DNA of 34,149 bases. It comes from Candidatus Methylomirabilales bacterium (GTDB lineage: Bacteria > Methylomirabilota > Methylomirabilia > Methylomirabilales > CSP1-5). The stretch covers positions 1 through 34,149 of the forward strand of contig JBHIAD010000002.1 of NCBI GenBank assembly GCA_046758405.1, in the 5' to 3' direction. The position numbers and the translations under genes were made by a program. Shown here piece by piece: positions 294 through 28,466 of the stretch. Within the stretch, counting starts at the first letter, position 1. Every line of letters begins with the position of its first letter. The notes beneath the pieces were generated by a model. The model worked only from the letters and a program-made list of their open reading frames with translations. It did no database searches and was not told the origin of the DNA.

Positions 294-309
294 TGGCATT
301 AGAGTTGCA
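294..309 (+). promoter_or_regulatory. sigma-54 (-24/-12) promoter candidate
   Basis: TGGCAT-N5-TTGCA (tggcattagagttgca). GG-to-GC spacing matches the consensus TGGCACG-N4-TTGCW. The C of GC lies 46 nt upstream of ATG 354, same orientation. Confidence 0.55.
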
Positions 310-353
310 TAATTCCAAGCGTGCCGACAACCCCCTACGGGAGGAGAGCATTA

Positions 354-581
354 ATGGACCCACTGACACTCTTTCGCACAATCGTCTTCGTTGGAGCCCT
401 CACCTGTACCTTGTTCGGGCTCCTGTTCCTTGTCAGCCCTGACTCCGTTCGCAGGCTGAGCCAAGTGGCCAATCACTCGATCCTCACCTTGGATACCGTT
501 ATCGGGAAGCGGCCTCGCCTGAGCGGGAGCGTCCTGCTCTTGTTGGGGGCCACCGTCTGCTTGATTCTCGTCGCATTCTAG
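354..581 (+). CDS. small hypothetical membrane protein (two hydrophobic segments)
   Basis: ATG 354 is preceded by GGGAGGAGAG (SD) with about 5 nt spacing. Product MDPLTLFRTIVFVGALTCTLFGLLFLV...LLLLGATVCLILVAF has two TM-like stretches. The ORF track begins at GTG 321. Confidence 0.5.
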   Translation: MDPLTLFRTIVFVGALTCTLFGLLFLVSPDSVRRLSQVANHSILTLDTVIGKRPRLSGSVLLLLGATVCLILVAF

Positions 582-730
582 GCGCCGAGGGCCCTGAGCC
601 TGGTTGACGTCTCGGTTCTTTCGGTGGTCTTCCCGCTCGAAACCTTCATGGCATGCCTCCACTCCCCCACAGGCCCGTCACGCCTCTCTCACCTCCCCCT
701 GGAGCCTTAGGAACAGGTCGAGGATCAGGG

Positions 731-1384
731 TCATTGACGTCCGCGAAGCTTGACAGCAGTCCCGCTCTGGCCACAGATACTCTGGAGCAATGAGGGGATC
801 CCAGTGGCGGTGAACTCTTCCACGTTAACCTCGGTATCGCTGAAGACGAGCACCCGGCGCCCGATACCGATCTGGCCTTGGTGGCGCACCCCCTCGAGTG
901 TGAGCGCCTCGGGTGGATCGAGCTCAGCGAATGCGCCCGCGAGGCGCGTGCCTGCACAGGCCAGCTGCTGTGTGAAGCTTCTATCCGGGTTCACCACATA
1001 GGTCAGATTGCAGCTGAACTGGTTTTGCCTCACCGGGCTACTGCCGGGGCTTCCCACGTTATCGATGACGAGGAGGCTGCGGGCGGTCGCGCTCCCCGTC
1101 CCGTCCCCGTTGTAACGGAAGATCCCTTGGGTAACCCTGGTATTGCGACCGGCGAAACCGCGCAGCCGCAGTCTGGGGGGAGGTTCGAACAGATCCCCAC
1201 CACCCGGGACATTCGCTAGGCTTCCTTGGACACAGACTTTTGTAAGGGTAAAGGCGTAGTCGCCACGCAGGAGCGCGTTAAGGTTCTTGGGCTCCTGCGC
1301 CTCCACGCTGCTACCACCCCCCAAGGAAAGCGTAACGAGGACCAGTACGGTCATTGTGAAGCACCGCAGGATAACGCGTTGCAT
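731..1384 (-). CDS. secreted hypothetical protein (N-terminal signal peptide)
   Basis: ATG 1384 is preceded by GAGAGGAGG with 7 nt spacing. MQRVILRCFTMTVLVLVTLSLGGGSSVEAQ looks like a Sec signal peptide. No family recognised. The ORF track gives 1423 as the most upstream start. Confidence 0.7.
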   Translation of the reverse strand: MQRVILRCFTMTVLVLVTLSLGGGSSVEAQEPKNLNALLRGDYAFTLTKVCVQGSLANVPGGGDLFEPPPRLRLRGFAGRNTRVTQGIFRYNGDGTGSATARSLLVIDNVGSPGSSPVRQNQFSCNLTYVVNPDRSFTQQLACAGTRLAGAFAELDPPEALTLEGVRHQGQIGIGRRVLVFSDTEVNVEEFTATGIPSLLQSICGQSGTAVKLRGRQ

Positions 1385-1672
1385 TCCGGACCTCCTCTCT
1401 CGGCAGGGAGTTGTTTCTTCCATTCACTCGTTTTGGTCAGGTGTGAGTGGATTCGGATCGTCTCAATACAATCAAGGGCCACCACCTCCTTCCACACCGT
1501 TGGGCAAGATGCCGGCAAGCTTGAGGATTACACGTGAGGACATTTTCCATCCCTACGTCTCCTAAAGGGGCTTTCAGCATGTCCTCCGACGCGGGTCGTG
1601 TCAACGAGAGACTGCGCCATCTCATGGCTACCTACCCGGTCCTGAGGAATCCCCCAAGCTGATCCGGAAACG

Positions 1673-1688
1673 TGGCACCGATGATGCA
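1673..1688 (+). promoter_or_regulatory. sigma-54 (-24/-12) promoter candidate
   Basis: TGGCAC-N5-ATGCA (tggcaccgatgatgca). The C of GC lies 32 nt upstream of ATG 1719, and a GAGGAG SD lies between them. Confidence 0.55.
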
Positions 1689-1718
1689 TAAGACTCCAAC
1701 ACCAGCACTGAGGAGATC

Positions 1719-2393
1719 ATGACCCCGCAGCATCTCAGCAAGCGCCGCTTCCCCCGTTTCCCCATTCAGCTGCCCGTCCTCTTCCGGCGGCAGGGCGAGG
1801 GCGATGGGCCGCGCGCAGGCCTCGGCCGCAGCCGGGACTTGAGCGAGGGCGGGCTCTGCCTGGAGTTCGACTACGCCTATCCGCCCGGGACCACCTTGGC
1901 CCTCGCCATCCGGGGCGCTGGAACGAGCATCGAGGCGGCCGCGCGGGTGGTCTGGACCGGGGTAGCCTCCCCCTCCGGGGCGATCCCCCACGGAATGCAG
2001 TTCGTCCACCTCGCCCCCGAGCAGTACGACGCCCTCCGGCAACTCTTCCCGCGCAGCGGTGCAATCCGCCGGGGAGCGGTCCGGGTGCCGGTGGAACTCG
2101 CCGTCTGGTGTCAGCCCTGCGATGGCGACGAACCCCCGCTGATGGGTCGGACCGTGGACCTGAGCCGGACCGGGGCCCAGGTGGTTCTCGACCGGGCCCT
2201 GCCGATCCGGAGCGAGGTCGAGCTCAGCCTCGCCATCCCGCATGGCGACATCCAGCAGCGTGCCCAGGTCCAATGGGTCCAACCGAGTGAAGCCGGGGGC
2301 GTTCACCACGGCCTGCACTTTCTTGAGCCGAACTGGGATGCTGAGACGTTTCTCGCTCCTTTGCTGCCCGATCACCCCCCCGCGCCTCCCTAA
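1719..2393 (+). CDS. tandem PilZ-domain protein (two PilZ domains)
   Basis: Two RxxxR...DxSxxG motif pairs: RRFPR...DLSEGG and RGAVR...DLSRTG. Very high third-position G+C. Paralog of 30263-30952 and 3599-4270. Confidence 0.85.
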   Translation: MTPQHLSKRRFPRFPIQLPVLFRRQGEGDGPRAGLGRSRDLSEGGLCLEFDYAYPPGTTLALAIRGAGTSIEAAARVVWTGVASPSGAIPHGMQFVHLAPEQYDALRQLFPRSGAIRRGAVRVPVELAVWCQPCDGDEPPLMGRTVDLSRTGAQVVLDRALPIRSEVELSLAIPHGDIQQRAQVQWVQPSEAGGVHHGLHFLEPNWDAETFLAPLLPDHPPAPP

Positions 2394-2663: not shown

Positions 2664-3023
2664 CTACCTTCCGTCTTTCAGCGACTCAAGGTATCCATCC
2701 AGCAGCCGCTGGGTTGCTTCGGAAAGATACAAGAACTGCAGCCCCGTCCGGTAGATCAGCTGGCGCTTCTCAGGTGCCCTCGTCTCCGGGCGGAGAACCC
2801 GCGACCAGACCACCCGGCAGGTCAGGCTTAGGTCGCGGCCGGGTATCAACAGGATCAGCGTCGCCAAGGGCCCGGGCCGGACGATATTGCCATGTTCGAT
2901 TTGGGCCCCCGCTGGGCCAAGATCAATGAGCGCTGCGGTCTCGATATCGTCGATCCGCCCCGTAAGTCGCCCGGCGACAACCCAGCGCGGATGCTGGCGG
3001 CGCTCTTGCTGTGGCTGCTCCAC
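2664..3023 (-). CDS. single PilZ-domain protein (second motif degenerate: DLGPAG)
   Basis: RQHPR (RxxxR) followed by DLGPAGAQI. Clear paralog of 12501-12878. GTG start. Confidence 0.8.
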   Translation of the reverse strand: MEQPQQERRQHPRWVVAGRLTGRIDDIETAALIDLGPAGAQIEHGNIVRPGPLATLILLIPGRDLSLTCRVVWSRVLRPETRAPEKRQLIYRTGLQFLYLSEATQRLLDGYLESLKDGR

Positions 3024-3095: not shown

Positions 3096-3111
3096 GGCAA
3101 AGAAGATGCCA
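3096..3111 (-). promoter_or_regulatory. sigma-54 (-24/-12) promoter candidate
   Basis: The minus strand reads TGGCAT-N5-TTGCC (tggcatcttctttgcc). It lies 72 nt upstream of GTG 3023. Confidence 0.55.
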
Positions 3112-3220: not shown

Positions 3221-3249
3221 ATGAAACCAGATGTTTCATCTTGTTTCAT
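3221..3249. repeat. AT-rich palindrome/repeat ATGAAAC-N5-GTTTCAT-N3-GTTTCAT
   Basis: A perfect 7-bp inverted repeat (3221-3227 / 3233-3239) plus a third GTTTCAT at 3243-3249. It sits in the only AT-rich patch of the 575-nt divergent intergenic region, 110 nt upstream of the minus-strand sigma-54 promoter. Confidence 0.6.
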
Positions 3250-3568: not shown

Positions 3569-3584
3569 TGGCATTAACGTTGCA
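3569..3584 (+). promoter_or_regulatory. sigma-54 (-24/-12) promoter candidate
   Basis: TGGCAT-N5-TTGCA (tggcattaacgttgca). The C of GC is only 16 nt upstream of ATG 3599, which implies a near-leaderless mRNA. Confidence 0.5.
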
Positions 3585-3598: not shown

Positions 3599-4270
3599 AT
3601 GCAACAACGCCTCCCTCGACGCGCGATCCGAGTCCCGGTGATCTACAAGCGGCTCGACTTAGAGGAGCCCGCGCTCGTCATGGATATCGGCCAGACCGAG
3701 GACCTGAGCGAGGGCGGGGCCTGCCTCAAGCTTCAGAGTCAACTCCCGGTGTCCTGCCGGGTGGGCCTCGTTTTGTTCACCACCCCGCGGGCGGTCGATG
3801 TCGAGGCGCGCGTGATCTGGACCAGAGGGCGCGACAAATCCTTCCACCACGGCGTGGAATTCCTCCAGATGGGCCCTACTCATTTCACATCCTTATTGGA
3901 GGCTTTGGCCCAGGAGAAATCCCTGCGCCAGCAGGCCCTCCGCCTCCCCATCCGGATGCCCGTCCTCTGTCGGGTGGTGGGTGCGAGCGGCCCTTCTCTG
4001 GAGGGGTGGACGCGGGATCTCAGCCGCACCGGGGTCCTGCTGCGGCTGCCCCGGCAGCTCCCGACCAACGCCGAGGTGGAGATCACGCTGAAGACGCGTC
4101 GGGAAGAACAATTTCGCGGTCGGGTCCGCTGGGTGGGTACCGCTCGGGAGGGCTCTCAACCAATCCGCCACGGCATTGAATTCCTCCAAGCGCCGCTCGC
4201 CCCCGAGCGGTTCATGCGCCTGTTCTTTGGAGCGCCCGACGAGAGAGGGCGCGGGGAAGTGGCTCCCTAG
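3599..4270 (+). CDS. tandem PilZ-domain protein
   Basis: RRAIR...DLSEGG and RLPIR...DLSRTG motif pairs. Same two-domain layout as 1719-2393. Confidence 0.85.
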   Translation: MQQRLPRRAIRVPVIYKRLDLEEPALVMDIGQTEDLSEGGACLKLQSQLPVSCRVGLVLFTTPRAVDVEARVIWTRGRDKSFHHGVEFLQMGPTHFTSLLEALAQEKSLRQQALRLPIRMPVLCRVVGASGPSLEGWTRDLSRTGVLLRLPRQLPTNAEVEITLKTRREEQFRGRVRWVGTAREGSQPIRHGIEFLQAPLAPERFMRLFFGAPDERGRGEVAP

Positions 4271-4632: not shown

Positions 4633-4648
4633 TGGAACAAAGGTTGCA
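4633..4648 (+). promoter_or_regulatory. sigma-54 (-24/-12) promoter candidate
   Basis: TGGAAC-N5-TTGCA (tggaacaaaggttgca). It lies 51 nt upstream of GTG 4698, which has a GGGAGG SD at 8 nt. Confidence 0.5.
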
Positions 4649-4697: not shown

Positions 4698-6272
4698 GTG
4701 CTTATTCCCCGTAGAGAAGGGAGAAGGGCCGGCCGAGACGGATGGTTCCTCGTCCGCCTTGTCCCATTAGGGAGCCGCGCTTCCGATTTCGCCATCAGCA
4801 TCTGGCGGCGGTCGATGCCAAGGCGGTTTCCGATTGCGTACAAGCTGGCCCTCGCCATCACCACGCTGATCACCATCAGTATGGCTTCGCTTGGGGTGGT
4901 TATTGTGAATAAGCAGATGCAGCTCTTGCGGAAACAGACCGACACCTTCAGCCGCACCATCGTGAAGCAGATGGCCGAATCCGCCAAGGAGCTGATGCTC
5001 GCGAATGACAGGCTGGGCCTGAAAGTCCTTACCAGCAATCTGGTCTCTGATGAGAGCGTCCTTGGTACGGCGATCTTTTCCACGGATGGGAAAATCCTTG
5101 CGCAATCCGGTGTCACGCCATTCAACGACGCAACAGCCGCACGCGAGCAACTCACCGACATCCTCGATCTGCAGCCAAGCCAAGTCCTGGAATGGCAGTG
5201 GCGCGAGTCTCCGGCCACAAGTCCTAACGTGGTCTCCTTCGTCAGCCCTATGCGCTTCCAAAACATGGTGGTCGGGTACGTCTTGATCACATCCAACCGC
5301 TCCTTCATCGATCAATCCGTGCGCCACTCCCTGAGTCGGATCACTCTCGCCACCGTATTCATGATACTCCTCGCCGTCTTGATGTCCTTTCTGCTAGCCA
5401 AGCGCTTATCGAGGCCCATTCACCGCCTTGTCGAGGCGAGCCGGGCAATTGGCAAGGGGGATTTCGATTACCGGATCACAGAACGGCGTACCGACGAGAT
5501 CGGCTACTTAATGGCAGCCTTCAATTCCATGGCGGAAGGGCTCTTGCAAAAAACCAAGGTCGAGAGTGTCTTTTCCCGGTTTGTCTCCACAGAGGTCGCC
5601 AAACAGATCCTGTCGGACTTAAGTCACGTCGAACTGGGCGGGAAACCTGCGGAAGGGAGCGTGCTCTTCGCCGACATTGTCGAATTCACCAGCATGGCCG
5701 ATCGCATGTCACCGCGCGCGATCGCCGAGCTACTCAATGAGTACTTCTCCTACATCTGCCAGGCCAGTGCCCTCTGCCGCGGAACCATCGACAAGTACAT
5801 CGGTGATTGCGTCATGATCGTATTTGGGGTCCACCAAGAGGATGAAGACCATTGTTTCCAGGCCATTGCCTGTGCAGTACTCATTCAACGGATCGTTACT
5901 ATCTTGAATGCCCGCAGAGTCCTGCAGGGATCGTTTCAGGTGAACTTCCGGATGGGATTGAACACCGGGGAAATGATTGCCGGAACGATGGGGTCAGAAA
6001 GTCGGATGCAGTACACCGTGGTCGGTGACTCCGTGAACCTCGCCTCCCGCCTGTGCTCCCTGGCAGGGCCTGGAGAGATCGTGATCAGCCAAGAGATGTA
6101 CACACATCCGACAGTCCAGCCGAGGATCGTGGCCCGCAAGCACCAGGTCGCACATGTTAAAGGCAAACGGGAGCGGGTTACCACCTATCTGGTTCAAGAC
6201 GTCGCTTCCCCCGATCGCCATATCATGGATAAGCACGTGGAGATGATCTTGGCGGAGAAGGTGATCGCATGA
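4698..6272 (+). CDS. membrane-bound class III nucleotidyl (probably adenylate) cyclase: 2 TM + periplasmic sensor region + HAMP + cyclase domain
   Basis: Cyclase motifs VLFADIVEFT, DKYIGDCVMIVFG and VVGDSVNLASRL, with the metal Asp residues and the Asn/Arg pair present. Lys (DKYIGD) plus Thr (QYTVVGD) sit at the base-specifying positions, which suggests ATP. There is a HAMP-like segment after the second TM. An alternative start is ATG 4815. Confidence 0.9.
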   Translation: MLIPRREGRRAGRDGWFLVRLVPLGSRASDFAISIWRRSMPRRFPIAYKLALAITTLITISMASLGVVIVNKQMQLLRKQTDTFSRTIVKQMAESAKELMLANDRLGLKVLTSNLVSDESVLGTAIFSTDGKILAQSGVTPFNDATAAREQLTDILDLQPSQVLEWQWRESPATSPNVVSFVSPMRFQNMVVGYVLITSNRSFIDQSVRHSLSRITLATVFMILLAVLMSFLLAKRLSRPIHRLVEASRAIGKGDFDYRITERRTDEIGYLMAAFNSMAEGLLQKTKVESVFSRFVSTEVAKQILSDLSHVELGGKPAEGSVLFADIVEFTSMADRMSPRAIAELLNEYFSYICQASALCRGTIDKYIGDCVMIVFGVHQEDEDHCFQAIACAVLIQRIVTILNARRVLQGSFQVNFRMGLNTGEMIAGTMGSESRMQYTVVGDSVNLASRLCSLAGPGEIVISQEMYTHPTVQPRIVARKHQVAHVKGKRERVTTYLVQDVASPDRHIMDKHVEMILAEKVIA

Positions 6273-7351
6273 AACGCCTATCCCTGCTGGCTTGCGTACT
6301 CCTTGTTTCTCTGCACATCGCCAGCTGCGCGAACACGCTCATCCTCCGAGGGCCGACCTTGCAGCAGGTGGAGCATCTGGTTGCTGCAGAGGAATATGAG
6401 ATCGCCCTTGACCTGCTCCGCAGTACACCGAAGCGCCACCCGGACTACCAGGCCTTGCGGACAAAACTTCGAGAGGTGGAGAAGCTCGCCGGAGAATACG
6501 CGCGAAGGATCCTCAGGAACATACGCAAACACCTGAAAGCCGGAAACTGGTCCGACGCCTTTCGACATCTCTACATCGGCCTCGCCAGGATTCCGTCCAG
6601 CCCGACGCTACAAGAGGCCCACGACGAGTTGCTCAGATCACAAGCCCGGCGAATCCAAGAGCTCAACACCGAGATCCTCATCGTAAGAGGCAAATGGCTG
6701 AGCGAGGAGGCTCCACTCCGCGAAGAGCTTTCCCGTGTCGATCTGGATAGCTACATTGCAAAATGGGACCTGCGGCGAACCCGGAACGCGCGCAAAGACG
6801 CCTCGGACCGGCTCCTCGCCTGCGGCCTACGGGCGATAAGCGACAAGAACTTTGATCTGGCGAAAAGGTGCCTGACCGTGGCGAGCCGTTTGGACCAATC
6901 GGAGGCAGTCGAACACGCTCTCACAGGCCTGCAAGGGCAGAGGGCAAAATACGAAGAAAAAGCGCGCCGGCAAAGACAGCGCACACAGCGAAAGAAGTTC
7001 CGTCGCACATCAAAGGGACTTATCGCCCGGGTGGAAGTGGCAATGGATCAAGGGAACTTCGCGCTGGCGCGAGAGGCCATGGGTATGCTCATGGAACTCG
7101 ACCCCAGGGATCCCGAAGTCCAACGACTACACCGGCAGCTCAATACCGCGGTCTCAACCAGAGTGGCCACCCTCCTCGAGCGCGGCAGTGTCCTGTACCG
7201 AGCCGAACGCATTGCCAAGGCAAAGGAGATCTGGGAAGAAGCCCTCCGGCTGGATCCGACGAATAAACAGGCCCAATCCTATGTGGAGCGGGCCAAGCGT
7301 GTGTTGGAAAAGCTGCGTGAATTGAAGGAGCAAGGTCCTAGGCTGGAATAG
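6269..7351 (+). CDS. lipoprotein with TPR-like/coiled-coil helical repeats
   Basis: MKRLSLLACVLLVSLHIASC carries a lipobox (IASC). The ATG overlaps the cyclase stop (GCATGA), indicating translational coupling. Confidence 0.8.
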   Translation: MKRLSLLACVLLVSLHIASCANTLILRGPTLQQVEHLVAAEEYEIALDLLRSTPKRHPDYQALRTKLREVEKLAGEYARRILRNIRKHLKAGNWSDAFRHLYIGLARIPSSPTLQEAHDELLRSQARRIQELNTEILIVRGKWLSEEAPLREELSRVDLDSYIAKWDLRRTRNARKDASDRLLACGLRAISDKNFDLAKRCLTVASRLDQSEAVEHALTGLQGQRAKYEEKARRQRQRTQRKKFRRTSKGLIARVEVAMDQGNFALAREAMGMLMELDPRDPEVQRLHRQLNTAVSTRVATLLERGSVLYRAERIAKAKEIWEEALRLDPTNKQAQSYVERAKRVLEKLRELKEQGPRLE

Positions 7352-7554
7352 CAAAGGCGAATCTCACGACTTCCCCTGCGGGACATTCCGATACCCTTTC
7401 ACAGCGGCAATCACTCCGTAAGGCAGCGCGGTGAGGTCTGCGCTCCCCTCCTTACCACAGGGCGCAAGGGGCGGAATACAGATGACTCATGGCAGACCAC
7501 CAGGCGGAGCCAGCTCTTCTCGGACCTCACCCCCTAGAGGCCCGCAGAGAGTCC

Positions 7555-7570
7555 TGGCACGGCAAATGCA
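7555..7570 (+). promoter_or_regulatory. sigma-54 (-24/-12) promoter candidate
   Basis: TGGCACG-N4-ATGCA (tggcacggcaaatgca). It lies about 240 nt upstream of GTG 7810, a long leader. Confidence 0.45.
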
Positions 7571-7809
7571 AAAACCCGCCCCGGAGCGCGAAAACCGAAG
7601 AGAACACCGGAGGGGACTGTGAGGAAGGCCGACCACGCATGTCCCCGCTGGGGTTCTGTATCCGCCTTGACTCTTGCCGGGCACGCGTGTGCCACGACCA
7701 TCCTTCGGCCAAAACCTATCACAAACTCCAGGGGGCCAGCCCCTGGTAACGTCGCCGGGAGAGGGGGAAGGACATGTTCCTGAGCCATCGGCGCTAAGAG
7801 GATTGGATT

Positions 7810-9909
7810 GTGTCGCGGAACGTCCTAGTCGCCGACAACGACCGCCTTCTGGTCACCCTGATGCAAGAGGCCCTCGAAGCGAAGGGCTACCAAGTCCTCT
7901 GCGCCTTTGACGGCATCGAGGTACTCGACCAGGTCCGGAGGAAACGGCCAGACTACATCATTCTCGACCTGGTCATGCCAAAGGTGGACGGGGTCCAAAT
8001 CTGCCGCCACCTCAAGGAAGACTCGGGGCTCCGATCAATCCCGATCATCGTCCTGACAGGGGCGGCCCCCGAGGCCGCCCACTGGCTGAAGGACGTCAGG
8101 GCCGATGCCTTCATCGCGAAGCGTAGCGGGGAGGCAATCCTGCAGGACCTCTTCGTGATCCTCAAGGGGTTCGAGGAAGGGACCGCCCCGCCCACCTGGG
8201 CCCAAGAGATCCGCGGTGTCGATGAGGTTCGGCCCCGTACGATCGTCACTGAACTGCTCACCCACACCACCCACCTGAACGCCATCCTGAAAAACCTGGG
8301 TGAAGGTATTTTCCTCCTCGATTCTTCTCACCGAATCCTGTATGTGAACCCGGCCGGGGCCGCACTGCTGCTTCGCCCTGAGCGAGAATTGATAGGGACC
8401 GCACTCGCGACGATCTTGGGGGTGGGCGAGGACGATCCGCTCCTCCAGGCCCTGAGGACCCTGACCTCGCGAGAGGGGCTGGCTACCGAGCGGCTCGTGT
8501 ACAGCTATCGGGCGTCGACCTTCCAGGTCACGATCACGAACCTCCACGGCGATGGCTGGGTAACGGGGCAGCTGCTCCTCATCCGGGACGTCAGTCCGCT
8601 GTTTCGACGGATCCGGGAATTGGCGGCGCTGAACGACCTGGCTTCGCTCCTCACCTCGACCTTGGACCTGGAGGAGCTGCTCCCCCTGATCATGGAGCGA
8701 ATTCACGCCTTGATGATCGTGGAGGCCAGCTCTCTTCTGTTAAAAGACGACAGGGAAGACACGCTGGTGTTTCGGATCGGGTTGGGGAAGTCCGGAGAAC
8801 TCATACAAGGGCGTCGTTTGAAGGTAGGGCAGGGGATCGCAGGCTGGGTGTGCCAGCATGGTGCCCCCCTCATTATCCCGGACGTGCGGGAGGATCCCCG
8901 GTTTTACGAGGGGATGGACCGGGACACGGGGTTCAGGACCCGGTCAGCGCTCTGCGTCCCCCTCAAGACCCGTGACAAGGTCATCGGCGTCATCCAGGTG
9001 CTGAACAGCCTGACTGGGCCCACTTTCACTGAGGATGATCAGAACCTGCTTTCCGCCATCGCAGCCCATGCAGCCACCGCAATCGAGAATGCCCGGCTCT
9101 ACGTCGAGGCGAAGGCTCATGCCGAAGACCTGGAGCGGAAGGTGGAAGCGCGGACCCGGGAAATTGAGGCCGCCAGCGCCCAGCTTGCGGAAGCCTTGCG
9201 CCAGGCGAACGAAGCCTCCCGCCACAAGTCAGATTTCCTCGCGAATATCTCCCACGAACTCCGGACCCCTCTCAACTCCATTCTCGGCTTCTCGGAGCTC
9301 TTGGAGGACCAGACCTGCGGCCCCCTGACTGAGAAGCAGCAACGGTACGTGCGGAACGTCCTCTCGAGCGGGCGGCACCTGCTGGCCCTCATTGATGATC
9401 TTCTGGACCTCTCCAAGGTCGAGGCCGGGAAGCTGGAGATGCATCTCGAGCATCTGCCGATCCGGGAAGCCCTGCAGGAGACCCTCAACCTCGTGAGGGC
9501 GCAGGCCGAGCAGAAACACCAATCCTTGGAACTCACCGTGGCCCATGACCTTTTAACCTTTTCCGTCGATCCGATCCGCTTCAACCAGATCCTCTACAAT
9601 CTCCTCTCGAACGCCGTGAAGTTCACCTCCGAGGGAGGACAAGTGAGGGTGGATGCCCATCGGGCCGGCGAGTTCCTTGAGATTGCCGTCCAGGACACGG
9701 GGATCGGTATCAAGGCCCAAGACATGCCAAAACTGTTCCAGGAATTCACCCAACTCGATGCCTCCTTGGCGAAGCGCTACCAGGGGACGGGACTCGGCCT
9801 CGCCCTTACGAAGAAGCTGGTCGAGCTGCACGGGGGAAGCATCGAGGCTGCCAGCGGTGGGCCAGACCAGGGCAGCACCTTCACGGTCCGGTTCCCCCTG
9901 CGGGCTTAA
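7810..9909 (+). CDS. hybrid sensor: N-terminal receiver (REC)-PAS-GAF-HisKA-HATPase_c histidine kinase
   Basis: REC features are VADND...IILDLVMPKVDG...FIAK. The GAF-like region contains GIAGWV...ALCVPL. The H-box is SHELRTPLNSILGFSELL. G-boxes DTGIGI and GTGLGLALTKKLVELHGG are present. Confidence 0.9.
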   Translation: MSRNVLVADNDRLLVTLMQEALEAKGYQVLCAFDGIEVLDQVRRKRPDYIILDLVMPKVDGVQICRHLKEDSGLRSIPIIVLTGAAPEAAHWLKDVRADAFIAKRSGEAILQDLFVILKGFEEGTAPPTWAQEIRGVDEVRPRTIVTELLTHTTHLNAILKNLGEGIFLLDSSHRILYVNPAGAALLLRPERELIGTALATILGVGEDDPLLQALRTLTSREGLATERLVYSYRASTFQVTITNLHGDGWVTGQLLLIRDVSPLFRRIRELAALNDLASLLTSTLDLEELLPLIMERIHALMIVEASSLLLKDDREDTLVFRIGLGKSGELIQGRRLKVGQGIAGWVCQHGAPLIIPDVREDPRFYEGMDRDTGFRTRSALCVPLKTRDKVIGVIQVLNSLTGPTFTEDDQNLLSAIAAHAATAIENARLYVEAKAHAEDLERKVEARTREIEAASAQLAEALRQANEASRHKSDFLANISHELRTPLNSILGFSELLEDQTCGPLTEKQQRYVRNVLSSGRHLLALIDDLLDLSKVEAGKLEMHLEHLPIREALQETLNLVRAQAEQKHQSLELTVAHDLLTFSVDPIRFNQILYNLLSNAVKFTSEGGQVRVDAHRAGEFLEIAVQDTGIGIKAQDMPKLFQEFTQLDASLAKRYQGTGLGLALTKKLVELHGGSIEAASGGPDQGSTFTVRFPLRA

Positions 9910-19395: not shown

Positions 19396-19738
19396 GACGC
19401 GCTACCCTTCTCAGCTGATTCGAGGGGACCACGGGCGCGGGCGCCCGGTCATCCGCGAAGCCATCTCCACATATCTCGACTGCGGCGATCTGCACCAGGG
19501 GCCTGCCCGCTGGGAATACCGGATCGGGGGGCATTGTAAACCGGAATGATCGATCGCTCAACTGACTATCCTTCAGCACCCTCTCCTCTGATGTGTTGAT
19601 CCGACGGATGACGGCACAACACCCAATCCCGAAACAGTCGGGGGTTCCGGGCCTTCGGACCCTTCAGGCGTGTCTCCTGGCCCTGCCGCTTGGAAGGGAG
19701 ACCCCACGGCCGAGGAGGGCGATCTGTCAGCGGCGGGG

Positions 19739-19873
19739 TTACCAGAGGGCAGGGTCGGAGTGGATCTGCTTCCAGTGGAACCAGAAGGTGAGGGCCGCCG
19801 GGAGCTGCTCGAGCAGTCGGCCGGCAGGGTGTCCCCTCACCGCTTCGCCGGCCACGGCGTGCCAAGGGAACCG
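19739..19873 (-). pseudogene. orphan 3'-terminal fragment of a DUF3179 gene
   Basis: ...FPWHAVAGEAVRGHPAGRLLEQLPAALTFWFHWKQIHSDPALW* aligns with the C-terminus of 26321-27391 (...TIWNALTGEAVRGKLAGTRLEQVPATLAFWFAWKQIYPDTAFW). The body of the gene is replaced by the REC-PilZ gene. Confidence 0.55.
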
Positions 19874-19883: not shown

Positions 19884-19899
19884 TGGCACACCTCTTGCA
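19884..19899 (+). promoter_or_regulatory. sigma-54 (-24/-12) promoter candidate
   Basis: TGGCAC-N5-TTGCA (tggcacacctcttgca), a full consensus match. The C of GC lies 45 nt upstream of ATG 19943. Position is conserved with the paralog at 25445. Confidence 0.65.
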
Positions 19900-21255: not shown

Positions 21256-21738
21256 TCAGGCCGAGCGCTTGACGAGCATGGCAAAGATCATGAAGTGGGT
21301 GACAAACAGGGCAGGTACCACAAAGGTCGGGATGTACCAGGCAGAGCCCATGTGGGGGGCCGCGTCGAGCCGAGTCCCCTGGAAGAAGGCGTATACCAAA
21401 TCTAGCGTCCCGATGATGTTGCAGAGCCAGGTCAGGGGGAGCGCGAGGGGCCAGCGGGCGCGGAGCGCCACGATAGCGAGGAGCGCGAGCAGCCCTGCCA
21501 GGAGATCGCCATACGCGGCGGGGAACGCGAAGGCCGACGGCAAGGTGGGCGCGACCACCGCCGGGACCAGAAAGACCAGGCCGATGTGGCGGAAGACGTG
21601 GAGGAAGAGCAACGGGATCAACGCGTCATAAAGTGGCAGCGCAACCAAGCGCGGCGCCACGTACCACTTCGCGATGAGTGCGTAGCCGATCAGGCTGAGC
21701 ACCACTTGGAGTCCGAAGATTTGAAAGTTGTCCATCAT
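21256..21738 (-). CDS. hypothetical integral membrane protein (about 5 TM)
   Basis: Hydrophobic throughout, with GGAGGGCGG directly upstream of the ATGATG start. No family recognised. Confidence 0.7.
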   Translation of the reverse strand: MMDNFQIFGLQVVLSLIGYALIAKWYVAPRLVALPLYDALIPLLFLHVFRHIGLVFLVPAVVAPTLPSAFAFPAAYGDLLAGLLALLAIVALRARWPLALPLTWLCNIIGTLDLVYAFFQGTRLDAAPHMGSAWYIPTFVVPALFVTHFMIFAMLVKRSA

Positions 21739-22132: not shown

Positions 22133-23443
22133 TTAGGGCGATCCTTTCGACTCAGGGGGTGACGGCGAAGGAGAAGCGATCGACGAAGGCCGAGGGAGGA
22201 TGAGTTTTACCGTCCGTTCGTAGAAAAAGTAGTCCCAGGCCCAGTTCACCATTACGAATAACCGATTCCGGAACCCGATCAGATAAAAAAGGTGTAGACC
22301 CATCCAGAGAAGCCAGGCGGGAAAGCCCGTAAAGGCCCAGCGATTCAGAAGATGGGCGACGGCGGCGTTCCGGCCGATGGTAGCCATCATCCCCCTGTCT
22401 CGATAGTGGAAGGGTCGGAGCGGTTCTCCCACAAGCTGTCGCAGGATATTTTTCGCGGCCCGCACCCCCTGCTGGATGGCGACAGGGGCTACCATGGGAA
22501 TGGGGTATCCCTCCTCTTCAAGGTAGGCTAGGTCTCCAATCACATAGACATTAGCGTAGTTCGGCACCTGTAACGTTGGCAGAACGGTAATCCGACCGTT
22601 CCGTGCAGTGGGAAGGCCCGAAACCTCTGCACACGGATCCCCACGGACCCCGGCCGTCCAGACTACCGTTTCCGTAGGGATCACCTCCCCATCCTCTAGG
22701 TACACAGAATCGGGGGCTACCCGGGTCACCACCGCCTGGAGACGAACCTTAATCCCCTTCTTCCCCAGCCGGGTTCGGGCATACTCCCGAAACTTTTCAG
22801 GGAACGTGGGGAGAAGATTCCCGGCCGCCTCGAGAAGAACGACCCGAACCTCTTGAAAATCGAGGGTAGGATAATCCCGTCTAAGAGGTCTGTAGATGAG
22901 CTCAGCCAGCGCCCCGGCAAACTCCACCCCGGTAGCCCCACCCCCCACGATGGTAAAGGTGAGGAGCCGGTTGCGACGTTCCGAATTTCTTTCCTGAACC
23001 GCCCGCTCGAAGCAGTGCAGAATATGGTTCCGAAGAGCGATGGCCTGATCCATGGTACGAAGAGGAAAGGCACGCTCAGCCGCACCGGGGACTCCAAAGA
23101 AGTGTGTGGTGCTGCCTGTCGCCAGAATCAGAAAATCGTAGGGAAACGCTGGACCATCGGTTTTTATCACCTGCTTCTCAAAGTCAATCTCCGTGACTTC
23201 GGCCATAGCGAACTGGGCATTAGGCATCTTCCGCAGAATCCCCCTCACAGGATACGTGATTTCCTCGGGCTCCAACTCGGCGGCAGCCACCTGGTAGAGG
23301 AGTGGGAAAAAAGTGTGATAGTTGTTGCGATCCACCACGACAACGTGAACGGGGACCCGGGCCAGCGTCCGCGCAGCCCAGAGTCCTCCAAACCCACCTC
23401 CCACGATCACGACACATGGACGGTCCTTCTGAAACGTCTTCAT
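22133..23443 (-). CDS. ndh: type II NADH dehydrogenase (NDH-2)-like FAD/NAD(P)-binding oxidoreductase
   Basis: [14 protein letters not shown] and [16 protein letters not shown] dinucleotide-binding motifs, VYVIGDLA, and a C-terminal amphipathic/TM tail. Third-position G+C is visibly lower than in neighbouring genes. Confidence 0.9.
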
Positions 23444-23668
23444 CGATCTCTTCCCTGACCACGGGGAGCTACCTGACCCTTATAATGAGGACCCGACCCC
23501 GGAGGTCTTGGTCCCCCCCAGATCCTTCAAGGGGAGGTTCTAAGGCAGGAACGGGGTTGAAAGCAGTTAGCGAGTTTGTTCGGCCCTCCCTAGAAGACTG
23601 GCGGTGAAGTACCCGCCACGCTCAAACGCTGGGCTATTGTCAGTCGCCCCTGCCGGGGCTCCGCGGGC

Positions 23669-25057
23669 TCATGCCAGTGGCTTGAGGTCGCCCAGCATGG
23701 TCGGAATCAGCTCCGACACGGTCGGGTGAATGTGCATGGCCCGCTGGATCACGGTGTAGGGTGCTTGGGCGTACATGACATCCAGGATGGAATGGATGAT
23801 CTCATCGCCCCCGATTCCCAGGATGGCCGCGCCCAGGATCTCCTTGGTCTTGGCGTCCACCAGGATTTTCATGAAGCCCTGGGTCTCGCTTTTCTCCACT
23901 GCACGGGCCACGCGCGTCATGGGCCGCTTGGCCATCAGGGCTTTCCGGCCGGACTTCCGCACCTCTGCTTCCGTCATCCCGGCCCGGCCCAGGGGTGGGT
24001 CGATGTACAGGGCATAGGCCGGAATGCGGTCGCTGACGCGGCGCGGGTCATTGTCCAGCAGATTGGCGGCCACGATCTCGTAGTCGTTGTAGGAGGTGTG
24101 GGTGAAGGCCCCCTTCCCGTTACAATCGCCCAGGGCCCAGACGCCGGACACGGTGGTGCGCAGTTGGTCATCCACCACGATGTAGCCCTGTTGGTCCACT
24201 TTGATGCCTGCTCTGTCCAGACCGAGGTCATCCGTGTTGGGACGACGCCCCACCGCGAGGAGTAAACGCGAGCCCGTCACCTCCCTGGCTCCTTTCCCAC
24301 AATCAAGGTTGACCACGACCTTCTCGCCACGTCTTTCCGCATCGATGCATTCGGCCTCAAGGCGGATGGTGACTCCCTCGTTTTCGAGAATCTCCTTGAC
24401 TGCGTCCGAAACGTCTTCGTCATCGCGCTTGATCAAACGCGGACCCCTCTCCACGATGGTCACCCGGCTGCCAAAGCGCCGATACATCTGCCCGAACTCC
24501 AGGCCGATGTAGCTGCCGCCGATGATGATCAAGTGCTCCGGGAGGAAGTCCACTTCCATCATGCTGGAGTTGGTCAGGTAGGGCACGCTCTGGAGTCCGG
24601 AGAAGGGCGGCACGAATGCCCTTGCCCCCACGTTGATGAAGATCTCGTCCGCCTCCAGCCGTTCCTCCCCTACGCGAACCACGTGGGGTCCCTCAAAGCG
24701 CGCGTGACCCTCGTACACGGTGCAGTTCTCCAGGTTCTTGAGCCAGTTTTCCACACCTTGGTTGGACCGCCGCACCACACCATCCTTGCGCGTCTTGACC
24801 TTCTGCATGTCCACGGCGATGGAGCCGCCGACCATCACGCCAAAGTCGGCCCCCCGCCGGGCCATGTAGGCAGCGCGGGCGCTGGCCACCAAGGTCTTCG
24901 TGGGAATGCAGCCGGTGTTGACACAGGTGCCGCCGAACAGTTTGCGCTCGATGATGGCCACCTTCATCCCCGCTCCGGCCAGCCGTGCGGCCAGGGACGG
25001 CCCGGACTGCCCCGTGCCGATGATGATGGCGTCATATTGTGTTGCCATGGTGTTCAT
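23669..25057 (-). CDS. class-I pyridine nucleotide-disulfide oxidoreductase (flavoprotein disulfide reductase; not MerA-type C-terminus)
   Basis: AIIIGTGQSGPS, the redox-active GGTCVNTGCIPTK, LIIIGGSYIGLEFG, and a dimerisation-domain HIHPTVSE motif. An alternative start is ATG 25048. Confidence 0.9.
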   Translation of the reverse strand: MNTMATQYDAIIIGTGQSGPSLAARLAGAGMKVAIIERKLFGGTCVNTGCIPTKTLVASARAAYMARRGADFGVMVGGSIAVDMQKVKTRKDGVVRRSNQGVENWLKNLENCTVYEGHARFEGPHVVRVGEERLEADEIFINVGARAFVPPFSGLQSVPYLTNSSMMEVDFLPEHLIIIGGSYIGLEFGQMYRRFGSRVTIVERGPRLIKRDDEDVSDAVKEILENEGVTIRLEAECIDAERRGEKVVVNLDCGKGAREVTGSRLLLAVGRRPNTDDLGLDRAGIKVDQQGYIVVDDQLRTTVSGVWALGDCNGKGAFTHTSYNDYEIVAANLLDNDPRRVSDRIPAYALYIDPPLGRAGMTEAEVRKSGRKALMAKRPMTRVARAVEKSETQGFMKILVDAKTKEILGAAILGIGGDEIIHSILDVMYAQAPYTVIQRAMHIHPTVSELIPTMLGDLKPLA

Positions 25058-25314: not shown

Positions 25315-25329
25315 CACGGGGTTGCCACA

Positions 25330-25428
25330 GATGGGGTCGAGATCGCGCTCTTGCCAGGCGAACCAGAGGGCGAGGGTTGCCGGGATGGGTTGGCGCTACG
25401 CCGCGTGAGGCCGCCCCCGAACCATTTC
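25330..25428 (-). pseudogene. orphan 3'-terminal fragment of a DUF3179 gene
   Basis: EMVRGRPHAA*RQPIPATLALWFAWQERDLDPI aligns with GEAVRGKLAGTRLEQVPATLAFWFAWKQIYPDTAF. There is an in-frame TAG at 25396-25398. Its position relative to REC-PilZ is the same as for fragment 19739-19873. Confidence 0.5.
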
Positions 25429-25444: not shown

Positions 25445-25460
25445 TGGTACACGGCTTGCA
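25445..25460 (+). promoter_or_regulatory. sigma-54 (-24/-12) promoter candidate
   Basis: TGGTAC-N5-TTGCA (tggtacacggcttgca). The C of GC lies 44 nt upstream of ATG 25503, the same geometry as 19884-19899. Confidence 0.65.
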
Positions 25461-25502: not shown

Positions 25503-26216
25503 ATGCAAAAACGGCCGATCCTGATCATTGACGACGATCGTCATTCGTGCGAGCTGCTGACCTCCATCTTGAAAGAGGCGGGGTTCGCGGTCTTCACAGC
25601 CGCCGATGGCTTGTCCGGGATCGAACAGGCTCGGACAGTCCATCCCGCCGTGATCATCTTGGACATGATCATGCCCGGCATGGACGGGATCAGCACATGT
25701 CGAGAACTGAAACGGGATCCTTCCCTGAAGAGCATCCCCGTAATCGGCGTCACGGCCTCGAGGGACTCGCATTATACCGAGGAGGCCTTTCGCGCCGGGG
25801 CCGAGTACTTTCTACCGAAGCCCTTTGGGGCGGCGAGCCTCCTCCGTGTCGTGAATGCCGCCAATCGCTCGTTTCCCCGTCACCCCCGATTCCCGGCTGA
25901 GATCCCTGTCCGGTGCCTCATCGGTCGGGAAAGGAACACGACCAGGGAAATCGAGGGTCGCACCGGTAACATCGGTCTCGGAGGTTTCCTGCTCTTCCTC
26001 CCTGAAAGACTCGAGCGCGGGACTATCTTGAGCGTGGAGCTCAAGCCTCCGGCAGGACCGATCACCGCCAAGGCCACCGTCAGTTGGCAGGGTCCTCATC
26101 CGAGGGGTGACGGGCTGGTGCCGCACGGGATACAGTTCCGGGACTTTGCAGATGACCAGAGCTTCGTCTTGTACAAGCTCTACCTCAGCCGGATGGCTGC
26201 GAGGCCACCCGCATAG
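25503..26216 (+). CDS. response regulator receiver (REC) + C-terminal PilZ-like domain
   Basis: IIDDD...VIILDMIMPGMDG...FLPKPF, then RSFPR (RxxxR) and NIGLGG (Ser replaced by Gly). Roughly two-thirds identical by eye to 19943-20683. Confidence 0.9.
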   Translation: MQKRPILIIDDDRHSCELLTSILKEAGFAVFTAADGLSGIEQARTVHPAVIILDMIMPGMDGISTCRELKRDPSLKSIPVIGVTASRDSHYTEEAFRAGAEYFLPKPFGAASLLRVVNAANRSFPRHPRFPAEIPVRCLIGRERNTTREIEGRTGNIGLGGFLLFLPERLERGTILSVELKPPAGPITAKATVSWQGPHPRGDGLVPHGIQFRDFADDQSFVLYKLYLSRMAARPPA

Positions 26217-26320: not shown

Positions 26321-27391
26321 TCAGGGAGAGGGTTCCCAGAAGGCAGTGTCGGGATAGATCTGCTTCCAGGCGAACCAGAAGGCCAACGTGGCCGGGACCT
26401 GCTCGAGCCGTGTACCGGCGAGCTTCCCACGCACCGCCTCGCCGGTCAGGGCATTCCAAATGGTCCCGATCTCGGCGTCCTCCATGAAGAGACCCGTGCC
26501 TTCCCGGCGGAGATTCCGGAAGGTGAGGATCAGACCGGCGATCCGGCGCGAGAAGATGGTTCCTGTGGCGCTCTCCCGCGCAAAGACTACGGCAATCGGC
26601 TCCCCCGCCACAACGTCATTGACCAGCGGCACCCGGCTCAGGTGCCGGAATGGGTACGCCATCCGCGCGCCGGAGCGGTCGAGGCCGATCACAAATTCCT
26701 TCCCCGGCAGGCGCGCGTCTGGATTGGTCGTCCCGAAGATCCCGAGCTGGGGCCCTCGAACGTACCCCGCGTAGACGTTGTGCGTTCCGGTCAACCCGAA
26801 GCGGCTCCGCTTGTCGAGGACCTGGCTCTTGGGATGGAGCGCCTTCCATTCCGCCCAGGTGGTGTGGAGGGCTGGAATCATGGTGAGCTTCATCCCCTTG
26901 AGCTTCCCGACGATCGCGCTCCCGGTCACGTGACTCCAGAGGCTCTGAGTCTCTCGGTCATACATGACCAGCGAGTCCTTCCACAGCTTTCCGCTCACCC
27001 CGAAGGTCAGCGGCTTCCCCTTGATTTCCGGACGGACATACACGATGCCCGTATAGCAGAGAGGTCACCACGTCACGGCCACCGGCACCTTCCCGAGCGT
27101 CGTATTCACGATCTCGTGGTGGTTAAGCTGCCAGGTCGAGTAGGCCTTGGCCACCTGGCCGTCGCGGATCCCCAGGACCTGCTCCTCTGGCCGCATCCAC
27201 CTGTCCGCCTCGGCCACTGTCACATACCGCGGATCATCGATGGCCGGGATCGCGTCGACGGGCAAGACGGTCAGGATGGGCGAGCCGCCGACCATCTCCG
27301 GGCCCTGGGCTGCCAGGAACCGGGCCGAGCCGGCCATCCCGATCAGGACACAGACCAGCAGCAGCAGGGTCCCTCCTCTGCACCGGTGCAT
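26321..27391 (-). CDS. exported DUF3179-family protein, contiguous only if the in-frame TGA at 27065-27067 is decoded (candidate selenocysteine); otherwise a freshly split gene
   Basis: Track ORFs 27065-27391 and 26321-27043 share one frame. The joined product has a signal peptide (MHRCRGGTLLLLVCVLIGMAGSARFLAAQ) and DUF3179-like blocks (DAIPAIDDPRYV, WQLNHHEIVNTTLGKVPVAVTW-TGA-PLCYTGIVYVR, LTFGVSGKLWKDSLVMYDRETQSLWSH, FWFAWKQIYPDT). Confidence 0.6.
27036..27057 (-). promoter_or_regulatory. SECIS-like mRNA hairpin immediately 3' of the in-frame UGA
   Basis: The mRNA reads UGA-CCUCUCU-GC-UAUACG-[GGCAU]-CGUGUA-U-GU. There is a 6-bp stem, plus C-G and G.U pairs across a bulged U. The 5-nt apical loop starts with GG, and 15 nt lie between the UGA and the loop. 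Confidence 0.3.
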
Positions 27392-27560
27392 GGTTCCCTC
27401 CGCTCCCCCAGCCAGATGCTGCTCATCGCCCCTTGATCTACTACTCGTTGAACCCGACTCAGGGGAATCCTATTCCGGCCGGCCTCCGGCCGAATCGAGG
27501 TGCAGGCCACTCCACCGACGACGGAAGTGCGCGGGCGAGCCAAATCACCAGGCACCGAAT

Positions 27561-27589
27561 GAAAAAGCCCCCGGGGATTCCCCGAGGGC
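27561..27589 (-). terminator. rho-independent terminator of the lipoprotein gene
   Basis: The minus-strand RNA is GCCCUCGGGG-AAU-CCCCGGGGGC, a 10-bp stem with one G.U, followed by UUUUUC. It starts 22 nt after the stop at 27612-27614. Confidence 0.75.
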
Positions 27590-27611
27590 TCGCTTACCCG
27601 CTACTGGGCGA

Positions 27612-28154
27612 TTACTCCCACCTCTTGCGTCCATGCTTCTGCTTCTTGGGGCCAGCCCAGGGGGGCGGGCCGTCGCGGAGATGTCCGGGTGGCACCTGCG
27701 CCACAGGAACGGGTATCACCTGGACCGCAGCCCAAGGGCCGCCCCATTGGATGGCCGTGTACCACATGCGCCCATCCCAGTAAAAATACCGCCCTTCATA
27801 AAAGAGGATGTGTGAATGCGCATCGACCACGTAGAGTCCCCAGGCCGGCTCAAAGCGCAGCAGCGGCCCGGTGGCAGGCGGTGGTGGCACCTGGAGCGGG
27901 GGTGGTGGCGATACCGGAGCAGGTTGCACCACAGCCTGCCGTTCCTGGGCCTGGTCACGACCCCTGATGTGCGCCTCCCGGACAGGCTTCCCGGTCGTGT
28001 CCCTGATACTCCCCCGTCGTGCTCCTGAGACTCCCCCGTCGCCTGCGCCGATCCTCGCTCTCCTCATCGCTTCCTGGTCCAGGGTGGTAGCCGCCCCCCC
28101 GGCGCAAGCCGCAAGAAAAAGGACCGACAACAGGACAGCCTTCACCCAGCTCAT
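27612..28154 (-). CDS. hypothetical lipoprotein with Pro-rich linker and Trp/Tyr-rich C-terminal domain
   Basis: MSWVKAVLLSVLFLAAC carries a lipobox (LAAC). A GAAGGAGG SD is present. The product has a PPPPLQVPPPPATG linker and a ...YFYWDGRMWYTAIQWGGPW segment. Confidence 0.8.
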   Translation of the reverse strand: MSWVKAVLLSVLFLAACAGGAATTLDQEAMRRARIGAGDGGVSGARRGSIRDTTGKPVREAHIRGRDQAQERQAVVQPAPVSPPPPLQVPPPPATGPLLRFEPAWGLYVVDAHSHILFYEGRYFYWDGRMWYTAIQWGGPWAAVQVIPVPVAQVPPGHLRDGPPPWAGPKKQKHGRKRWE

Positions 28155-28212
28155 GGGTTACCTCCTTCAACGACTCAAACTCATCAGGTCATCAGGATCC
28201 ACGAGGCTGCTG

Positions 28213-28228
28213 AGCAAACGCTGTGCCA
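28213..28228 (-). promoter_or_regulatory. sigma-54 (-24/-12) promoter candidate
   Basis: The minus strand reads TGGCAC-N5-TTGCT (tggcacagcgtttgct), a full consensus match. It lies 58 nt upstream of ATG 28154. Confidence 0.6.
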
Positions 28229-28450
28229 GGCGGCCTCCGCCGTGCAAACCTCCCGAAACTTCTGGGAAAGTCCATTTCCAGGTCTCGGGGTCTGTGAAAG
28301 CGCCCGGTCGCAATTGTTCTCTTTTTCCCCAGCTCAGTCCCCGCGCCACCCACCCGGATAGCGAGAGCGGATTCCGATCCCCAAGGAGAGGGGCGGGTGC
28401 CCCGAAGATGTCCGACCTCGACGGGTCCGTTGGACGAAAGCCGGTGAATC

Positions 28451-28466
28451 TGGTACCCTCATTGCC
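28451..28466 (+). promoter_or_regulatory. sigma-54 (-24/-12) promoter candidate
   Basis: TGGTAC-N5-TTGCC (tggtaccctcattgcc). The C of GC lies 34 nt upstream of ATG 28499. Confidence 0.55.

Follow-up and report, generated by a model that had tools for sequence, protein, structure and literature searches.

Predicted sigma-54 promoters lie densely upstream of PilZ, sensor and envelope genes in a contig of a Candidatus Methylomirabilales bacterium

The stretch of DNA analysed here (the window, 34,149 bases, ~62% G+C) is an entire metagenomic contig, JBHIAD010000002.1, from a Candidatus Methylomirabilales bacterium. It carries seven PilZ-domain genes and a series of short elements resembling the -24/-12 promoter read by sigma-54 RNA polymerase, and the evidence on the host organism is this one 34-kb contig. 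The locus raises the question of whether these elements are sigma-54 promoters and, if so, whether they form a regulon. A first-pass annotation had listed ten of them in intergenic DNA and proposed a local sigma-54 regulon. Here, we scanned the window with a weight matrix and compared it with shuffled and unrelated DNA and with related loci. We consider it very likely that eleven elements, the ten listed and one further, serve sigma-54 RNA polymerase as promoters or, failing that, as binding sites.

Both strands of the whole window were scanned with a matrix built from the published consensus TGGCAC-N5-TTGCW, which is said to go back to Barrios, Valderrama and Morett (1999), its frequencies being approximate and not fitted to the window sites. 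The null was a set of 500 dinucleotide shuffles. At 12.5 bits or more we found 11 matches against 1.10 ± 1.04 per shuffled window (maximum 5), at 16 bits or more 8 matches against a shuffled mean of 0.046, and at 17 bits or more 5 against 0.024. The bare pattern TGG-N9-TGC occurred 40 times compared with 20.4 ± 4.4 in dinucleotide shuffles, a count that 0 of 100 shuffles reached. GG and GC were exactly 10 nucleotides (nt) apart in all 11 sites, whose scores ranged from 12.5 to 18.5 bits. The ten 16-mers of the first-pass annotation were all found at their coordinates and on their strands; its list had missed the eleventh strong match, which lies on the minus strand inside the TatD-like gene. 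The sites are as follows, all of the sigma-54 type.

294..309, plus strand: promoter TGGCATtagagTTGCA, 17.2 bits, 44 nt before the ATG (354) of a small membrane open reading frame (ORF) of 75 amino acids
1673..1688, plus strand: promoter TGGCACcgatgATGCA, 14.9 bits, 30 nt before the tandem-PilZ gene 1719-2393
3096..3111, minus strand: promoter TGGCATcttctTTGCC, 13.7 bits, 72 nt before the single-PilZ gene 2664-3023
3569..3584, plus strand: promoter TGGCATtaacgTTGCA, 17.2 bits, 14 nt before the ATG (3599) of the tandem-PilZ gene 3599-4270
4633..4648, plus strand: promoter TGGAACaaaggTTGCA, 16.4 bits, 49 nt before the sensor-cyclase/TPR operon
7555..7570, plus strand: promoter TGGCACggcaaATGCA, 16.5 bits, 239 nt before the REC-PAS-GAF kinase gene 7810-9909
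19884..19899, plus strand: promoter TGGCACacctcTTGCA, 18.5 bits, 43 nt before the REC-PilZ gene 19943-20683
25445..25460, plus strand: promoter TGGTACacggcTTGCA, 16.8 bits, 42 nt before the REC-PilZ gene 25503-26216
28213..28228, minus strand: promoter TGGCACagcgtTTGCT, 17.8 bits, 58 nt before the lipoprotein gene 27612-28154
28451..28466, plus strand: promoter TGGTACcctcaTTGCC, 12.5 bits (the weakest), 32 nt before the TatD-like gene 28499-29398
28604..28619, minus strand: eleventh site TGGCATgggggTTGCT, 17.4 bits, inside the TatD-like gene, 449 nt upstream of the lipoprotein gene

The comparison of intergenic with intragenic DNA, which the first-pass annotation had left as a check, came out in favour of the sites: ten strong matches fell in 7.3 kb of intergenic DNA and one in 26.8 kb of coding DNA. 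Intergenic DNA makes up 21% of the window and held 10 of the 11 matches (binomial probability about 2e-6). Each of the ten lay upstream of, and pointed in the direction of, a start codon 14-239 nt downstream. The earlier statement that eight of the ten lie at 16-74 nt also holds; counted from the last base of the 16-mer, eight start codons lie at 30-72 nt and the other two at 14 and 239 nt. In 720 kb of metagenomic loci that are unrelated to the window and had been collected for other purposes, matches occurred at 0.19 (at least 14 bits) and 0.01 (at least 16 bits) per 10 kb, compared with 2.64 and 2.34 in the window, a difference of 14- to more than 100-fold, while related Methylomirabilales contigs carried about 2 strong sites per 10 kb. 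Chance occurrence of a short degenerate motif in GC-rich DNA is an extremely improbable account of such figures. The core motif is indeed short, and the two weakest sites (28451 with 12.5 bits and 3096 with 13.7 bits) fall within the occasional range of the shuffles, but the number of sites with at least 16 bits, the 100-fold excess over unrelated DNA, the intergenic placement and the conservation of sites in orthologues and paralogues (described below) all argue against it. Chance is refuted for the set as a whole, and one or two of the weakest sites could be chance matches. The only other intergenic match above 12 bits, at 11157-11172 on the minus strand (12.2 bits), was rejected as one arm of a terminator hairpin.

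In principle, an unrelated DNA-binding protein could use the motif as its operator, or the motif could be the conserved end of a small repeat or mobile element and resemble the sigma-54 consensus by coincidence. The N5 spacer is partly conserved in the tandem-PilZ family, with TGGCACTGATGTTGCA identical in the five related contigs L089-L093, as such an element would predict. However, the likeness among the window sites ends at the boundary of the 16-mer, the motif is asymmetric and always points at a gene, and no direct or inverted repeat structure surrounds it. Moreover, the sites give a lineage consensus of TGGCAY-N5-TTGCW, which is conserved at exactly the positions where the sigma-54 consensus is conserved and varies where that consensus varies. 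We therefore regard an operator or repeat as very improbable and retain the reading of the elements as sigma-54 promoters.

We then considered whether the sites are kept in related genomes. The same organism is present in two Logan assemblies at 99.8-100% identity; 12 single-nucleotide polymorphisms separate the window from a second assembly (L085), all outside the sites, but the site positions covered there are too few to give this any weight. The best homologues of the window tandem-PilZ protein (47-58% identity) are labelled '[Candidatus Methylomirabilales bacterium]', and the organism appears to have no near relatives among sequenced genomes. Tandem-PilZ genes in contigs of Ca. Methylomirabilales metagenome-assembled genomes (MAGs; L087 and L089-L093) amounted to nine, each with a site of 16.5-17.7 bits, and in the comparison of L092 with L093 the promoter was the longest perfectly conserved block of a diverged intergenic region. 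The two REC-PilZ paralogues of the window are 67% identical; their upstream regions align, with the promoter kept 42-43 nt from the ATG, and the start codon of the first is fixed at 19943. Several of the full-length metagenomic REC-PilZ homologues (48-55% identity) also carry strong sites, among them TGGCACattacTTGCT in L014 (17.7 bits) and sites of 16.5 and 14.5 bits in L006, L007 and L008. For the sensor operon, relatives of the sensor protein among species-representative genomes came only from Ca. Methylomirabilales/Methylomirabilota MAGs, and the site is kept in both MAG contigs with such a relative (AGGAACaaaaaTTGCA in L001 and TGGCACtaaagTTGCT in L002; 46-52% protein identity), each of which has the TPR gene following the sensor. 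No syntenic relatives were found for the sites at 294, 1673, 3096, 7555, 28213, 28451 and 28604, and the nearest TatD homologue, 59% identical, lies within a peptide-transporter operon. A distant tandem-PilZ homologue from another lineage (39% identity, L095-L098) had no sigma-54 match of 12 bits or more in its 20 kb of surroundings; it carries a sigma-70-like promoter and a GGAGG ribosome-binding site, and the sigma-54 wiring is thus clade-specific and not a property of the whole family. Within Ca. Methylomirabilales contigs, the conserved sites suggest that the arrangement is lineage-wide and tied to the PilZ gene families.

Two observations on these relatives stand apart. In L001 (~370-1990) and L002 (~240-1840) the sensor with the same SMP_2/HAMP N-terminal part ends in HisKA/HATPase, while that of the window ends in a class III cyclase, so the output domain appears to have been swapped on a conserved sensor and promoter. 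In L087, a 10.5-kb Methylomirabilales contig, five tandem-PilZ paralogues (5534-8739 and 180-866) lie beside an IS110 transposase, and for three of the five a separate sigma-54 promoter stands 14 nt before the ATG. The tandem-PilZ family is strongly expanded at this locus.

The spacing of 14 nt deserves separate treatment. Site 3569 had stood as an outlier among the ten, but it turned out to have the most conserved geometry in the data set: in the window gene and eight tandem-PilZ homologues the promoter lies 14 nt before the start codon in eight and 15 nt in one. Conservation of the N-terminal residues, M-(R/Q)-Q-(Q)-R-F-P-R, fixes this start codon, and the sequence of the spacer is not conserved among the members. 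Across all 1.03 Mb of DNA examined, the distance from a strict match to the next long ORF peaked at 14-15 nt (11 of ~40), and the others scattered from 27 nt upwards. If the C of the GC box is taken as position -12, the ATG would begin at +5, leaving a leader of 4 nt and no space for a ribosome-binding site. A fixed distance from promoter to ATG is a mark of leaderless genes in other phyla. Hence we tentatively consider it a serious possibility, though not the favoured side of an even call, that the tandem-PilZ mRNAs are of a leaderless type with a leader of ~4 nt. Shine-Dalgarno-like purine runs (AAGGAG, GAGAGG) are present in about half of the spacers and weak or absent in the rest, and they count against leaderless translation because an mRNA with a 4-nt leader would omit them. 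These genes may have a further promoter upstream, or the holoenzyme bound there may have a function other than starting transcription. We found no literature report of sigma-54-driven leaderless genes or of such a fixed sigma-54 spacing. A hairpin in which the -12 box would pair with codons 2-4 of the window gene (GTTGCAT/ATGCAAC, a perfect 7-bp inverted repeat) was also considered and rejected as not general: fold z-scores in the nine tandem-PilZ members ranged from -2.3 to +0.9, and the pairing is missing in L090-L093.

Next to these elements, the window contains promoters of the other class. The first-pass annotation had assigned sigma-70-like boxes to rpsU, both TetR genes and the oxidoreductase operon, and these were confirmed for rpsU (11/12, TTGACA-18-TATAGT), the first TetR gene (11/12), the oxidoreductase operon (10/12) and the second TetR gene (TTGACA-15-TATTAT); the Na/H exchanger gene also has such boxes (9/12). 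A simple sigma-70 scan gave no match in any of the ten upstream regions that carry a sigma-54 site. This result bears on the possibility that sigma-54 holoenzyme binds the elements but is mostly inert there, or acts negatively by occluding a promoter or blocking read-through, especially at the 14-nt sites and the intragenic site. Most sigma-54 sites of E. coli, many of them intragenic, are bound by inactive holoenzyme (PMC4591121), the purine runs between the -12 box and the ATG suggest longer transcripts from elsewhere, and no activator site has been identified. On the other hand, no alternative sigma-70-like promoter is detectable upstream of the ten genes, the nine intergenic sites other than 3569 lie at ordinary promoter distances, eight of them with a good ribosome-binding site downstream of the predicted start, and the conserved orientation and distance are what a promoter would be expected to show. 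Inert or negative binding is in our view unlikely, and active promoters remain the preferred reading.

Besides the approximate matrix frequencies, several points weigh against that reading. The site at 28451, with 12.5 bits, would not be convincing on its own. Among REC-PilZ homologues, L005-L008 (~400-440 in L005) and L077 (~830) have CAGCAT/TAGCAT-N5-TTGCA, with AG and not GG, which are either decayed promoters or a tolerated variant; since some homologues carry AG for GG, the sigma-54 site is common but not universal among REC-PilZ genes. In the window and related loci together, a site of at least 13 bits within 250 nt upstream was found for 12/18 PilZ genes vs 9/76 others (Fisher p = 6e-6), but this statistic is inflated by the choice of loci through PilZ/REC-PilZ queries and by paralogy, and it shows the direction of the association and not its size. 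No GAFTGA (or related) motif is present in any frame of the window, in agreement with the earlier statement that no activator gene lies in it. A shared enhancer, which that annotation had suggested searching for, did not emerge: in the 230 nt preceding each of the ten sites, k-mers and dyad symmetries were no more frequent than in shuffled controls. A single common activator is not supported, because no shared upstream motif rose above the shuffles, and several activators, one per gene family, appear more likely than one. The 'local sigma-54 regulon' of the first-pass annotation thus stands as a set of genes read by sigma-54 polymerase, but not clearly as the regulon of one activator, nor is it merely local, the arrangement being lineage-wide.

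Three regions of the window are candidate activator sites.

3221..3249, no strand assigned: three ATGAAAC/GTTTCAT copies in an AT-rich cluster, 110-140 nt upstream of the 3111 (minus strand) promoter
19734..19803, plus strand: two blocks conserved in the alignment of the REC-PilZ paralogue upstream regions (counterparts 25317-25385)
28252-28289, between the divergent lipoprotein and TatD promoters: imperfect 38-bp palindrome, candidate activator site

The first holds within 29 nt 3 of the 8 copies of ATGAAAC in the window, where 2.1 would be expected across the whole window, and is a candidate site for an activator or a bending protein. The REC-PilZ blocks lie 80-150 nt upstream of the -24 element and are a candidate enhancer. 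Genes for activators are found in relatives. In L010, a GAFTGA-intact activator gene lies immediately upstream of a 15.2-bit sigma-54 site and a kinase-REC-PilZ operon. Homologues of this activator (70-72% identity) are annotated as sigma-54-dependent regulators in 'candidate division NC10'/Ca. Methylomirabilis genomes, one of them on a 2.75-Mb contig. We know of no function for activators with an intact GAFTGA loop in the absence of sigma-54, and since such activators are annotated there, the NC10 phylum is taken to possess a sigma-54 system. Around an NtrC-type activator gene in L094, a Ca. Methylomirabilis oxyfera contig, we also observed four intergenic, co-oriented matches to TGGCAY-N5-CTTGTT (3078, 11809, 13505 and 16013), which have GT in place of GC at -12; three of the four are downstream of the activator gene, and two are identical 16-mers. 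This motif is possibly a lineage-specific -12 variant or a different motif.

Under the preferred reading, sigma-54 holoenzyme would bind the GG (-24) and GC (-12) boxes as a stable, silent closed complex. This complex would be remodelled, at the expense of ATP, by an AAA+ enhancer-binding protein whose binding site would be ~80-200 bp upstream and whose gene would lie in another part of the genome. The units predicted to be wired in this way are five PilZ/REC-PilZ genes directly and a sixth by operon position, the sensor-cyclase/TPR operon, the hybrid kinase, the lipoprotein/DUF3179 unit and the TatD-MarC-PilZ unit, and for the PilZ genes the wiring would be a family trait in Ca. Methylomirabilales. 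About 10 of 19 transcription units on the contig bear a site. The analysis shows the sequence matches, their enrichment, placement and conservation, and activators in the phylum, while sigma-54 dependence, the identity of the activators, the start sites and leaderless translation are inferred; the ten sites appear to be ordinary sigma-54 promoters in kind, unusually dense in number.

Individual sites add detail to this picture. A ribosome-binding site, GGGAGGAG, lies between the 294 promoter and the membrane ORF, and the lipoprotein gene has a ribosome-binding site, GAAGGAGG, and a lipobox-like LAAC. The kinase promoter is followed by a 239-nt leader (7571-7809) with a GC-rich palindrome, GGCACGCGTGTGCC, at 7680-7693 and a hairpin at 7728-7746. 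This leader contains no convincing ORF and no Rfam family; Rfam and tRNA scans of the whole window returned no matches, and because the Rfam scan was empty no known riboswitch explains the leader. No separate promoter match precedes the tandem-PilZ gene at 30215, and MarC and this gene (30215-30952) are probably co-transcribed with the TatD-like gene. The eleventh site (28604-28619) is possibly a distal promoter or an inert binding site. Were it active, a second lipoprotein mRNA with a ~440-nt leader would start from this distal position, and its transcription would run head-on into the TatD promoter.

The genes of the window, assigned by Pfam, are listed below.

354-581, plus strand: small membrane ORF (75 amino acids)
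731-1423, minus strand: unknown gene
1719-2393, plus strand: tandem PilZ (Pfam PilZ twice)
2664-3023, minus strand: single PilZ (Pfam PilZ)
3599-4270, plus strand: tandem PilZ
4698-6272, plus strand: SMP_2-HAMP-class III cyclase, a membrane sensor
6269-7351, plus strand: TPR protein, in an operon with the sensor-cyclase
7810-9909, plus strand: REC-PAS-GAF histidine kinase (hybrid; Pfam)
10381-11045, plus strand: rpsU and RRM protein
11377-12914, minus strand: CBS, DUF6941 and PilZ
13058-18047, plus strand: TetR and RND pump
18136-19395, minus strand: Na/H exchanger
19943-20683, plus strand: REC-PilZ
21256-21738, minus strand: unknown gene
22133-25057, minus strand: two flavoprotein oxidoreductases
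25503-26216, plus strand: REC-PilZ
26321-27391, minus strand: DUF3179, downstream of the lipoprotein gene
27612-28154, minus strand: lipoprotein
28499-30952, plus strand: TatD-like (28499-29398), MarC (29415-30080) and tandem PilZ (30215-30952; Pfam)
31142-33315, minus strand: two unknown genes
33412-34047, minus strand: second TetR

The tandem-PilZ proteins look like competent binders of cyclic di-GMP (c-di-GMP), because RxxxR and DxSxxG are intact in both domains, and the REC-PilZ proteins have Gly or Ala at the expected Ser of DxSxxG.

Three features of neighbouring genes were recorded in passing. The rpsU gene overlaps by 4 nt the gene of a bacterial RRM (RNA-recognition motif) protein (10381-11045), and the unit stands behind a near-consensus sigma-70 promoter at 10223-10252. 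At the first TetR gene (13030-13064), the near-consensus sigma-70-like promoter (TTGACA-18-GATAAT, extended by TG) runs across the two earliest in-frame ATGs of the ORF; translation probably begins at the ATG at 13091, unless the gene model is wrong in another way. The DUF3179 gene has a single in-frame TGA at 27065-27067 on the minus strand, in the context ...VAVTW*PLCYTG..., at what we take to be the first Cys of the CPLC motif of the family. With Cys at the TGA, a single alignment spans the full Pfam model (289.6 bits vs 182 + 70 for the halves); an 8-bp hairpin (27032-27052) begins 12 nt past the TGA, and the same TGA is present in the second assembly (L085). The gene is a candidate for a selenocysteine (UxxC) protein rather than a pseudogene.

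How does this arrangement compare with known systems? It shares with canonical sigma-54 promoters (glnAp2, nifH) the invariant GG and GC, the exact spacing, the extended consensus, the upstream and co-oriented position and the lack of -35/-10 boxes. It differs in density (10 of ~19 units in 34 kb), in having no activator gene in the window, and in its targets, which are mostly PilZ receptors and sensors and not nitrogen, flagellar or stress genes. FleQ of Pseudomonas is a c-di-GMP-responsive sigma-54 activator, in which the activator itself senses c-di-GMP. Sigma-54 transcription is linked with c-di-GMP signalling in both cases, but in the window the predicted sigma-54 promoters stand before receptor genes, and no FleQ-like gene was seen there. 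For the leaderless mRNAs of Actinobacteria and Deinococcus, the start codon lies a short, constant distance from a sigma-70-type -10 box. The tandem-PilZ genes resemble them in the fixed promoter-ATG distance, the unconserved spacer and a Shine-Dalgarno sequence that about half of the members lack or have in weak form, whereas their promoter is of the sigma-54 class and the predicted leader is ~4 nt and not 0.

The genome of E. coli measures 4.6 Mb. It has 135 mapped sigma-54 sites, the majority intragenic (PMC4591121), while only 1 of 11 strong sites is intragenic in the window. Bonocora et al. (2015, PMC4591121) describe three E. coli cases in which an intragenic sigma-54 site gives the following gene an mRNA with a long 5′ untranslated region (UTR); the window site at 28604-28619 resembles the intragenic sites of E. 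coli and Salmonella in lying within a gene and, if active, would likewise produce a 5′ UTR of ~440 nt. Francke et al. (2011, PMC3162934) presented sigma-54 as a 'central controller of the bacterial exterior', and the lipoprotein, the membrane sensor with its TPR partner, MarC and the small membrane ORF fit this theme. That survey mentions PilZ 0 times (PMC3162934), and the emphasis of the window on c-di-GMP receptor genes lies outside its picture.

We found no published sigma-54 work on NC10/Methylomirabilota. The phylum comprises nitrite-dependent methane oxidisers and their relatives. The sites add members to a familiar class of element, from a phylum without earlier studies of it, and sigma-54 promoters fused to the start codon are possibly a new variant. 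The contigs sampled carry about one strong site per 4-5 kb. As a more speculative proposal, which we hold as doubtful but worth stating, sigma-54 might be the main switch of NC10 bacteria for their expanded PilZ/REC-PilZ receptors and sensors, with hundreds of promoters per genome and one subfamily of a leaderless type whose promoters lie 14 nt from the ATG. The sites supply predictions of start sites and operons for the annotation of uncultured genomes of the NC10 lineage, and the fixed 14-nt geometry offers a simple case for asking whether sigma-54 transcripts are translated without a leader. If the reading is true, expression of c-di-GMP receptors would be gated by enhancer-dependent, all-or-none promoters, which would place the output of the second messenger under tight, signal-specific control.

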